Below, one piece after another: positions 3,111 to 14,467 of a stretch of DNA of 64,000 bases. Made by a program: the position numbers and the translations under genes. Positions within the stretch are counted from its first letter, which is position 1. Every line of letters begins with the position of its first letter. The notes below the pieces were generated by a model that searched no databases, was not told where the DNA came from, and saw nothing but the letters and a program-made list of their open reading frames with translations. The stretch is from Escherichia coli (lineage in GTDB: Bacteria; Pseudomonadota; Gammaproteobacteria; Enterobacterales; Enterobacteriaceae), in NCBI RefSeq assembly GCF_003334405.1, contig NZ_QOWM01000007.1. One strand, given 5' to 3'.

Positions 3111-11765
<8,655 letters not shown>

Positions 11766-12233
11766 TTAACTTAAAGAGTCTGTTTCAGGACATGAAATAT
11801 CCAATCCGGGTAGACGGGTAATGATTCTGCTCATCACCACACCTGCCAGCAATGCAGGAATGATGCGGACAACGAGACTGTCACCAGAAAGAATGTTTTC
11901 AAACAACTCCGAGGAAGCCATGCCCTTAATATGTACAATAACTGCACAATAGATCTCGGTGATAACGACGCCACCTATGCCACCAGCCAGACAACGATAA
12001 CGTTTCTGTGACCCGATCTTTTCCGGCAGACAGGCAACCATTACACCGGTTAACAACGCAGGAATAGCTCCCGTAGTTATCGACAATAAGAGAAAAATTG
12101 GATGTATTATCACCCAAAGAACCAGCGGTTCTTTTGCGAAGAATATGTAGAGGACAAGAAACAGAACACCAATTAACGGTCCTAAAACTGCAAAATAAAG
12201 TCCGTGATGTATTACCCGACGTGAAACAGACAT
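11766..12233 (-). CDS. cbrB: Inner membrane protein CbrB
   Basis: 155 aa hydrophobic ORF. Confidence 0.9.
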   Translation of the reverse strand: MSVSRRVIHHGLYFAVLGPLIGVLFLVLYIFFAKEPLVLWVIIHPIFLLLSITTGAIPALLTGVMVACLPEKIGSQKRYRCLAGGIGGVVITEIYCAVIVHIKGMASSELFENILSGDSLVVRIIPALLAGVVMSRIITRLPGLDISCPETDSLS

Positions 12234-12280
12234 ATCAAACTCCCTTTACTTACCTTTGAGCGCCAATTTAAGCGGGGTAA

Positions 12281-12296
12281 GTGAAGGGAGTGTGAA
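12281..12296 (-). promoter_or_regulatory. cre-tag (CreB-binding direct repeat) upstream of cbrB
   Basis: Minus strand reads TTCAC-ACTCCC-TTCAC, about 50 bp upstream of cbrB start. Confidence 0.6.
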
Positions 12297-12299
12297 GAA

Positions 12300-12965
12300 C
12301 TATGCCGTAATATCCCAACCACGCGCTTTCCACAGTTCAGGTAACTGCGAAAGATGGGTAAAGGTGGTGACTTTCGGGTGAACGATCGGCTTATTGTGCG
12401 GGTCGGCGCAGAAGTAGAACACTTCCATACCTGCGTCGATACCAGATTGTGCACCGGCAACTGAGTCATCAACCAGAATGCAGTTTTCTACATTTACATT
12501 CATCGCTTTTGCCGCATGGAACATTAACGCCGGGTCTGGCTTCCAGCGCTGAATATCGTAGCCGCTGAACAGTTTATCCGGGAAGTAGTGCAACATATTC
12601 AGCTTGCCCATAGAATGCTGCATTTTGTTATTTGGGCCGTTAGATACCACACACATTGGCGCAGTGATCGCTGACAGGAGCGCTCCAGCCCCTTCGATGG
12701 CTTCCAGTTCTGAATCGAACAGCCGAGCGACTTCTGCACGGTAAACGTGTTCAGCTTCTGTTTTCGCTAACGTAACACCATGTTCAAGGGAAACAATATC
12801 GATAATTTCGTACAGTTTTACACCTTTGAAACGTTTGAATACCTCTTCAGGATCGAGCGTAATACCAAATTCCTGAAACATCGTTACATATGCGCGAGAG
12901 CAAATGACTTCACTGTCGACCAGCGTACCGTCGCAGTCGAAAAATACCGCTTCTATCCGGGACAT
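12300..12965 (-). CDS. yieH: HAD-family sugar phosphatase YieH
   Basis: 221 aa; HAD motif I FFDCDGTL near N-terminus. Confidence 0.92.
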   Translation of the reverse strand: MSRIEAVFFDCDGTLVDSEVICSRAYVTMFQEFGITLDPEEVFKRFKGVKLYEIIDIVSLEHGVTLAKTEAEHVYRAEVARLFDSELEAIEGAGALLSAITAPMCVVSNGPNNKMQHSMGKLNMLHYFPDKLFSGYDIQRWKPDPALMFHAAKAMNVNVENCILVDDSVAGAQSGIDAGMEVFYFCADPHNKPIVHPKVTTFTHLSQLPELWKARGWDITA

Positions 12966-13129
12966 GCCTTTCCTTTTTAATCAGTTTAACGTTTTCGTAG
13001 AGCCGATTTGCGCAACGCAATCGTTGCCGTATAAGTAAATCCAATAAAAAAGTCTCTCACAAACGCGCCTATTGTCGCATTTTGGTATACGATAGCGACG
13101 GATTTTCCCTCCTTGTTCGGAAATAGATA

Positions 13130-14467
13130 ATGAGTCATCAACATACCACCCAGACTTCTGGTCAGGGGATGCTGGAACGCGTGTTTAAACTGCGCGAACA
13201 TGGCACGACGGCACGGACCGAAGTGATCGCCGGTTTTACCACCTTCCTGACGATGGTTTACATCGTTTTTGTTAACCCGCAAATTCTTGGCGTTGCTGGC
13301 ATGGATACCAGCGCCGTCTTCGTCACTACCTGTCTGATCGCTGCATTCGGCAGTATTATGATGGGACTGTTTGCTAACCTGCCAGTTGCACTGGCACCCG
13401 CTATGGGCCTGAATGCGTTCTTCGCTTTTGTCGTTGTACAGGCGATGGGCTTGCCGTGGCAGGTCGGGATGGGCGCAATCTTCTGGGGCGCGATAGGTCT
13501 GCTGTTACTGACGATTTTCCGCGTTCGCTACTGGATGATAGCCAACATTCCGGTGAGTCTGCGTGTGGGTATTACCAGCGGTATCGGTCTGTTCATTGGC
13601 ATGATGGGGCTGAAAAACGCAGGTGTGATTGTCGCTAACCCGGAAACGCTGGTGAGCATCGGTAATCTGACTTCTCACAGCGTACTTCTGGGTATCCTCG
13701 GCTTCTTCATCATTGCTATTCTGGCCTCGCGCAACATTCACGCAGCGGTGCTGGTTTCTATCGTGGTGACGACGCTGCTGGGCTGGATGCTGGGTGATGT
13801 GCACTACAATGGCATCGTTTCTGCGCCGCCGAGCGTAATGACAGTTGTGGGTCATGTAGATTTAGCCGGGTCGTTTAACCTCGGGCTGGCAGGGGTGATT
13901 TTCTCTTTCATGTTGGTCAACTTGTTTGACTCCTCCGGTACGCTGATTGGCGTGACCGATAAAGCAGGTCTGGCGGATGAGAAGGGGAAATTCCCGCGCA
14001 TGAAGCAGGCGCTGTATGTCGACAGTATCTCTTCCGTGACCGGTTCGTTTATCGGTACTTCTTCCGTTACGGCTTATATTGAGTCCTCTTCCGGCGTATC
14101 GGTTGGCGGTCGTACCGGTCTGACGGCAGTGGTTGTTGGTCTGCTGTTCCTGCTGGTTATCTTTCTGTCGCCGCTGGCGGGGATGGTGCCAGGCTACGCT
14201 GCAGCTGGTGCGCTGATTTACGTTGGCGTGCTGATGACTTCCAGTCTGGCACGCGTGAACTGGCAGGATCTTACTGAATCTGTTCCGGCGTTTATTACCG
14301 CCGTGATGATGCCGTTCAGCTTCTCGATTACCGAAGGTATCGCGCTGGGCTTTATCTCCTACTGCGTGATGAAAATCGGTACCGGACGTCTGCGTGATCT
14401 AAGCCCGTGCGTAATCATCGTTGCGCTGCTGTTTATCCTGAAGATTGTCTTTATCGACGCTCACTAA
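13130..14467 (+). CDS. adeP: Adenine permease AdeP (AzgA/NCS2-like)
   Basis: 445 aa polytopic transporter. Confidence 0.93.
   Translation: MSHQHTTQTSGQGMLERVFKLREHGTTARTEVIAGFTTFLTMVYIVFVNPQILGVAGMDTSAVFVTTCLIAAFGSIMMGLFANLPVALAPAMGLNAFFAFVVVQAMGLPWQVGMGAIFWGAIGLLLLTIFRVRYWMIANIPVSLRVGITSGIGLFIGMMGLKNAGVIVANPETLVSIGNLTSHSVLLGILGFFIIAILASRNIHAAVLVSIVVTTLLGWMLGDVHYNGIVSAPPSVMTVVGHVDLAGSFNLGLAGVIFSFMLVNLFDSSGTLIGVTDKAGLADEKGKFPRMKQALYVDSISSVTGSFIGTSSVTAYIESSSGVSVGGRTGLTAVVVGLLFLLVIFLSPLAGMVPGYAAAGALIYVGVLMTSSLARVNWQDLTESVPAFITAVMMPFSFSITEGIALGFISYCVMKIGTGRLRDLSPCVIIVALLFILKIVFIDAH

Follow-up and report, generated by a model that had tools for sequence, protein, structure and literature searches.

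An exact cre tag upstream of cbrB as the probable CreB operator of the cbrB–cbrC promoter in Escherichia coli

The direct repeat that lies between yieH and cbrB is almost certainly the cre tag already known for the cbrBC (yieIJ) promoter. As such it belongs to the textbook biology of E. coli K-12, and, since the cbr genes already bear the name 'CreB-regulated', the finding is in itself an ordinary one. Judged from its sequence context, the repeat is very probably the CreB operator of an activator-dependent promoter that serves both cbrB and cbrC. The additions made here are modest: independent evidence from comparison that genes of the CbrB family take the tag with them in Escherichia, Citrobacter and Klebsiella; a sharpened model of the promoter, with an extended half-site, CTTCAC, and a putative −10 placed 10 nt after the tag; and the idea, open to testing, of an anti-Shine–Dalgarno hairpin within which the promoter would lie.

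The window, by which we mean the whole stretch of 64,000 nucleotides that was analysed, is E. coli K-12-type chromosome. Its positions 11000–13200 are 100% identical to HB101, where the RefSeq genes are yieK, cbrC, cbrB, yieH and adeP. K-12 MG1655 encodes creABCD, and creBC lies outside the window. The identities of yieH, cbrB and cbrC were taken from NCBIfam equivalogs together with the RefSeq annotation, each gene matching its own equivalog. On the minus strand, positions 12296..12281 read TTCAC ACTCCC TTCAC, an exact match to TTCAC-N6-TTCAC. The 5′ edge of this tag is 3 nt past the yieH stop codon TAG (12302..12300) and its 3′ edge is 47 nt from the cbrB ATG (12233), with the tag on the cbrB coding strand. 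The spacer between yieH and cbrB measures 66 nt, and both the tag and the putative −10 fall entirely within it. When the sequence was re-read, the preliminary description proved to be correct in its coordinates, in the sequence of the repeat and in the distances to the yieH stop and the cbrB start. It had also named TTCAC-N6-TTCAC correctly as the CreB site, the same tag being given in PMC4689548 and PMC3962086.

In these sources TTCACN6TTCAC is the cre/blr tag upstream of creD and is critical for the binding of activated CreB/BlrA (PMC4689548), whilst Avison et al. are credited with defining the tag, which is bound by CreB in vitro, and with delineating the Cre regulon by means of it; phoM is the former name of the cre locus (PMC3962086). 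When MG1655 was exposed to colicin M for 30 min, the log2 values were 5.66 for creD, 5.2 for cbrB, 4.3 for cbrA and 3.77 for cbrC; cbrB was listed there as 'inner membrane protein, creBC regulon', and yieH does not appear in the list of up-regulated genes (PMC3599342). According to bioRxiv 10.1101/615310, a CreC-activating mutation leads to over-production of YieI/YieJ and to tolerance of colicin E2, in a CreB-dependent manner, and the literature cited there reports that induction is lost in a creB deletion and restored by creB in trans. The proposal that the tag places cbrB–cbrC under CreBC control is supported both by the co-induction with creD and cbrA and by the CreB-dependent tolerance linked to YieI/YieJ. 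The site accounts for the CreBC-linked rise in colicin E2 tolerance (CbrC), a link already in the literature; under the same CreBC-activating conditions, CbrA brings resistance to colicin M and CreD tolerance of beta-lactams during growth. Reportedly, yieI and yidS were named by Avison et al. in 2001 among the tag-bearing genes of the cre regulon. A point against the operator reading is that in Salmonella CreB is able to bind a promoter without a typical tag.

By itself the motif is weak evidence, since the bare 10 bases would be expected by chance about 6 (shuffles), 8 (base composition) or 19 (observed pentamer frequencies) times in 4.64 Mb, these genome-wide numbers being extrapolated from composition-based expectations. 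The context must therefore carry the argument. Within the 64-kb window, TTCAC-N6-TTCAC occurs exactly twice against 0.08 copies expected from dinucleotide shuffles, and none of 100 shuffles reached two; copies with one mismatch are not enriched (7, with 4.3 expected). The site stands above chance because of where it lies and which way it faces, because it recurs at cbrA and because it is kept in front of distant CbrB homologues. A one-mismatch tag, TTCACCCGAAAGTCAC (12367–12382, minus strand), was considered as an auxiliary site and set aside as probably a chance occurrence. It lies in the coding sequence of yieH, at the 3′ end of the gene, 70 nt upstream of the exact tag and on the same strand, and its position carries two mismatches in island-less E. 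coli and also in homologue L009.

To compare the site across diverged genes, 1.8 billion cluster representatives (at the 50%-representative level) were searched for CbrB. Few diverged full-length homologues were found, and the DNA of seven, from Citrobacter, Klebsiella oxytoca/michiganensis and other contigs, was compared; a word-indexed search gave only near-identical E. coli CbrB among the 120 matches listed. The seven CbrB-family genes have 30–44% protein identity, and all seven carry the repeat on the gene strand, 47–65 nt before the start codon, with no mismatch in four, one in two and two in one (Table 1). For several of them the gene lies behind a phnP-like gene next to yjdP, instead of behind yieH. 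The half-sites are thus kept while the spacers and the neighbours change, which matches the prediction for a protein-binding site. The tag is also identical in E. coli K-12, IAI1, Nissle 1917 and 1162C, although this conservation was rejected as evidence, since the spacer has only four variable sites and a 16-nt tag would stay intact by chance about one time in three.

Table 1. Features of the yieH–cbrB–cbrC region and of the cbrA promoter (window coordinates), and the tags upstream of CbrB-family homologues.
Feature	Position	Strand	Mismatches in tag	Distance to start codon (nt)	Remarks
yieH, 6-phosphogluconate phosphatase	12300..12965	-			Core gene preceding cbrB; its stop codon lies against the tag
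cre tag of cbrB	12281..12296	-			Direct repeat with 11-bp periodicity; presumed site of a CreB~P dimer
20-nt inverted repeat	12235..12295	-			Arms 12276-12295 and 12235-12254, 90% complementary
Putative -10 hexamer TAAATT	12265..12270	-			Exactly 10 nt after the tag; inferred
Predicted CreB-dependent cbrBC transcription start	12257..12259	-			About 7 nt after the -10; from promoter geometry only
cbrB Shine–Dalgarno AGGGAG	12240..12245	-			6 nt before the ATG at 12233; from sequence
cbrB (yieI), inner-membrane protein, PF26516	11766..12233	-			First gene of the regulated unit
cbrC (yieJ), colicin E2 tolerance protein	11130..11717	-			48 nt downstream of cbrB
Second exact cre tag, TTCAC-AAGGAC-TTCAC (TTCACAAGGACTTCAC)	40409..40424	-		46	Before the cbrA ATG (40362)
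L008 tag TTCACACACTCTTCAC			0	50	
L009 tag TTCACACTCCCTTCAC			0	47	After a yieH-like gene
L010-12 tag TTCATCGTCTCTTCAC			1	48	Citrobacter cluster
L013 tag TTCACCGTCACTTCAC			0	52	Exactly the creD tag
L014 tag TTCAC-N6-TTCAT-N6-TTCAC			1 per adjacent pair	50	Klebsiella oxytoca/michiganensis cluster
L015 tag TTCACACAAATTTCAC			0	50	
L017 tag TTCGCGCTCCCTTCGC			2	65	

The sole two exact tags of the window are both on the coding strand and at nearly equal distances (46 and 47 nt) from the starts of cbrA and cbrB. The yidR–cbrA spacer, divergent and 64 nt long, holds the tag of cbrA (yidS), which lies 2 nt from the yidR ATG and is followed after 10 nt by TAGTCT (40393–40398), without a −35. The cbrA tag shares with the cbrB tag the half-sites, the TAnnnT at +10, the lack of a −35 and the regulon. 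In contrast to cbrB, cbrA has a divergent spacer and no hairpin pairing with its Shine–Dalgarno sequence (z = +2.2), and it is present in nearly all E. coli (the cbrA region is found in 5421 of 5426 complete genomes at an identity of at least 95%), whereas cbrB is island-borne.

The E. coli creD tag, TTCACCGTCACTTCAC, offers a second comparison. It abuts the creC stop and overlaps the last creC codons, and it resembles the cbrB tag in its identical half-sites, its 6-nt spacer, its strand orientation and its place against the stop of an upstream gene on the same strand (creC and yieH, respectively). It differs in lying 61 rather than 47 nt from the start codon, and in having no TAnnnT at +10 but a TAGTCT 22 nt after the tag. 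Since creD lacks the +10 spacing, the promoter architecture described below is not universal. A possible third, degenerate repeat, TTCAA, follows the creD tag. The TTCACN6TTCAC consensus also stands upstream of creD/blrD elsewhere, as the blr tag in Aeromonas (BlrAB) and as the cre tag of creD in Pseudomonas and Stenotrophomonas. These tags belong to other genera and other target genes, and that of Stenotrophomonas is degenerate (TTCAA) and differently regulated (PMC4689548).

Ten promoters (those of cbrB, cbrA and creD, and of the seven homologues) were aligned on the tag. In eight of the ten, the tag is followed at a distance of exactly 10 nt by the pattern TAnnnT, against a background frequency of 0.0126; counting nine independent promoters, of which seven have it, the binomial P is ∼2e-12 at the measured background. 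A C stands before 19 of the 20 half-sites, often as AC, so that the unit of the repeat is really CTTCAC, or (A)CTTCAC with a 5-nt spacer. If TAAATT is the −10 of cbrB, the tag comes to lie at about −38..−23, over the missing −35. The hexamer at the −35 position, ACACTC, matches the consensus at none of its six bases, and no canonical sigma-70 −35/−10 promoter was found in the yieH–cbrB spacer or in the other tag spacers scanned.

These features suggest the following mechanism. CreB, a response regulator of the OmpR/PhoB family that is phosphorylated by CreC, would bind as a CreB~P dimer to the two (C)TTCAC half-sites, head to tail and 11 bp, or one helical turn, apart. The tag, 10 nt upstream of a weak −10 (TAAATT), would stand in for the −35, and the bound CreB would recruit RNA polymerase, as PhoB does at the pho box. 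Transcription starting near 12258 would then give a short leader with a free Shine–Dalgarno sequence, followed by cbrB and cbrC. We infer the −10, the transcription start, the polymerase contact and the direct binding of CreB at the cbrB promoter alike. The pho box, where PhoB acts by class II activation, likewise has 11-bp direct repeats that replace the −35, 10 bp upstream of the −10. However, the PhoB half-site, CTGTCAT, differs from the TTCAC of CreB; the likeness is one of workings only and not of family membership, and the contact between CreB and sigma-70 is a predicted one.

It had also been proposed that the tag controls cbrB–cbrC independently of yieH, and here the support is indirect. 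In E. coli MLI108K3, which has no cbrB, the homology runs no further than the yieH stop codon, and the tag is missing. Because the homology of K-12 to island-less strains ends at that codon, the tag belongs to the bgl–cbrBC island and not to yieH; counted from the junction (window 12297–12306; 1395–1535 in L004) into the island, it is the first feature. The bgl–yieIJ island is described as joined to the core gene yieH (PMC2646131), and about 40% of complete E. coli genomes are without the full yieK–cbrC–cbrB–yieH stretch. The placement of tag and putative −10 inside the spacer, the island-side location of the tag, the homologues with tags of their own and the absence of yieH from the list of colicin M-induced genes all speak for independent control. 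Against full independence, a simple scan (loop limit 8) flagged no terminator between yieH and cbrB, and some basal read-through from yieH is possible.

The spacer also contains an inverted repeat, which covers 15 of the 16 tag bases as well as the region of the cbrB Shine–Dalgarno sequence. The RNA fold in which the tag is paired with the Shine–Dalgarno has an energy of −28.7 kcal/mol (z = −4.3), with ACUCCCUU-c-ACUUACC predicted to pair with GGUAAGU-a-AAGGGAGU, whereas an RNA that begins at 12258 is unstructured (−2.7 kcal/mol, z = +0.9). Amongst other E. coli, one pair of the hairpin is changed to G-U in Nissle and one pair is lost in IAI1. The stem is kept in L009 by a two-sided change, from CUUACC/GGUAAG to CUUAUCC/GGAUAAG (z = −4.95). 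A 10-bp stem followed by UUUUUAU is present in L013 (z = −2.9), and its loop of 10 was missed by the scan with a loop limit of 8. Weaker stems that pair with the Shine–Dalgarno were seen in L014, L010 and L015, and none in L008 (z = +0.4). For L013, L014 and L010, the 5′ arm lies over the −10/start region and not over the tag. In the creC–creD region of MG1655 (L006 4137–4182) there is an 11-bp perfect stem, ACAUAGUCUUC/GAAGACUAUGU (z = −4.6), which covers the AUG and part of the Shine–Dalgarno of creD.

From these folds we advance, tentatively and with more doubt than confidence, the idea that a hairpin surrounds the CreB-dependent promoter and insulates cbrB against yieH. In RNA reading through from yieH, the hairpin would hide the cbrB Shine–Dalgarno, and pausing or termination of the transcript may come in addition. 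RNA whose synthesis is started by CreB would begin inside the loop, without the 5′ arm, and would escape to be freely translated. A comparable layout is seen at creD, with its stem over the AUG, and in those CbrB homologues whose 5′ arm covers the −10/start region. The position of cbrA in a divergent spacer means that read-through from an upstream gene is not possible there; cbrA has no upstream gene on its own strand, and the insulating type of structure is absent. If the arrangement is general, any cre-tag promoter placed immediately after another gene would come with its own filter against expression by read-through. The inverted repeat that pairs with the Shine–Dalgarno is absent from the literature examined.

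The hairpin could in principle also be the whole story, the sequence being primarily the arm of an RNA or DNA hairpin (a terminator for yieH, a stabiliser of its 3′ end or a translational mask for cbrB) and the TTCAC repeat incidental to it. Such an account would be in keeping with the span of the inverted repeat across tag and Shine–Dalgarno region, with the energy and z-score of the fold and with the retention of the L009 stem through changes on both sides. It is nonetheless improbable: the TTCAC repeat is kept where the 5′ arm is off the tag (L013, L014 and L010) and where the hairpin is absent (L008), and the structure has no proper U-tract, has a loop of 21 nt and was not flagged by the terminator scan. 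The preferable view is that the hairpin comes on top of the operator and does not take its place.

That the 10-base motif should have come to lie between yieH and cbrB by accident, with no regulatory role, is scarcely credible, even though a genome would contain some 6–19 such motifs and one-mismatch copies are not enriched in the window. Two exact copies in 64 kb, both on the coding strand and 46–47 nt before genes named CreB-regulated, weigh against accident, as does the joint response of cbrA, cbrB and cbrC with creD. The repeat moreover recurs at a comparable distance before seven diverged CbrB homologues whose spacers and neighbours differ, and this footprint across homologues effectively refutes chance. 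We regard it as highly improbable, too, that the site is used not by CreB but by a different regulator of the OmpR/PhoB family, or through cross-talk. Across this family, direct repeats with an 11-bp period over the −35 are a general feature, and CreC originally came to light as PhoM, which donates to PhoB by cross-talk, so that the geometry of the site and the history of the kinase would both allow for it. Nevertheless, the half-site is exactly that of the published cre tag, which is also the tag of creD, the co-induction is with creD, the standard CreBC reporter, and the colicin-tolerance phenotype is creB-dependent. A CreB operator remains the preferred reading of the cbrB repeat.

Some further observations were made on individual sequences. 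In E. coli ECCTRSRTH03, the match to window 11000–13200 falls into two pieces, with ∼780 extra bases in the record, and the annotation under the match has an IS1 transposase and two 'hypothetical protein' genes and does not name cbrB. This suggests an insertion of IS1 in or near cbrB, which fits the published frequent IS insertions in the bglHIK–yieJI genes. One candidate homologue, present in protein databases with 70% identity (P0126/L007), was discarded, as its sequence is the E. coli yieH–cbrB region with essentially every C read as T; this contig (Logan ERR3578235) is a database artefact, probably derived from a bisulfite-converted library. The most distant homologue, L017 (225–330; 30% identity, called at 225 aa), reads TTCGC-GCTCCC-TTCGC, each half-site having a G in place of the A; TAnnnT is missing at +10, and the tag is 65 nt from the called start. 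The deviation could reflect an altered specificity of the regulator, decay of the site or a miscalled start codon. Finally, in L014 (241–1115) three repeats of the TTCAC type, spaced at 11 nt, are followed by a tandem pair of CbrB-family genes.
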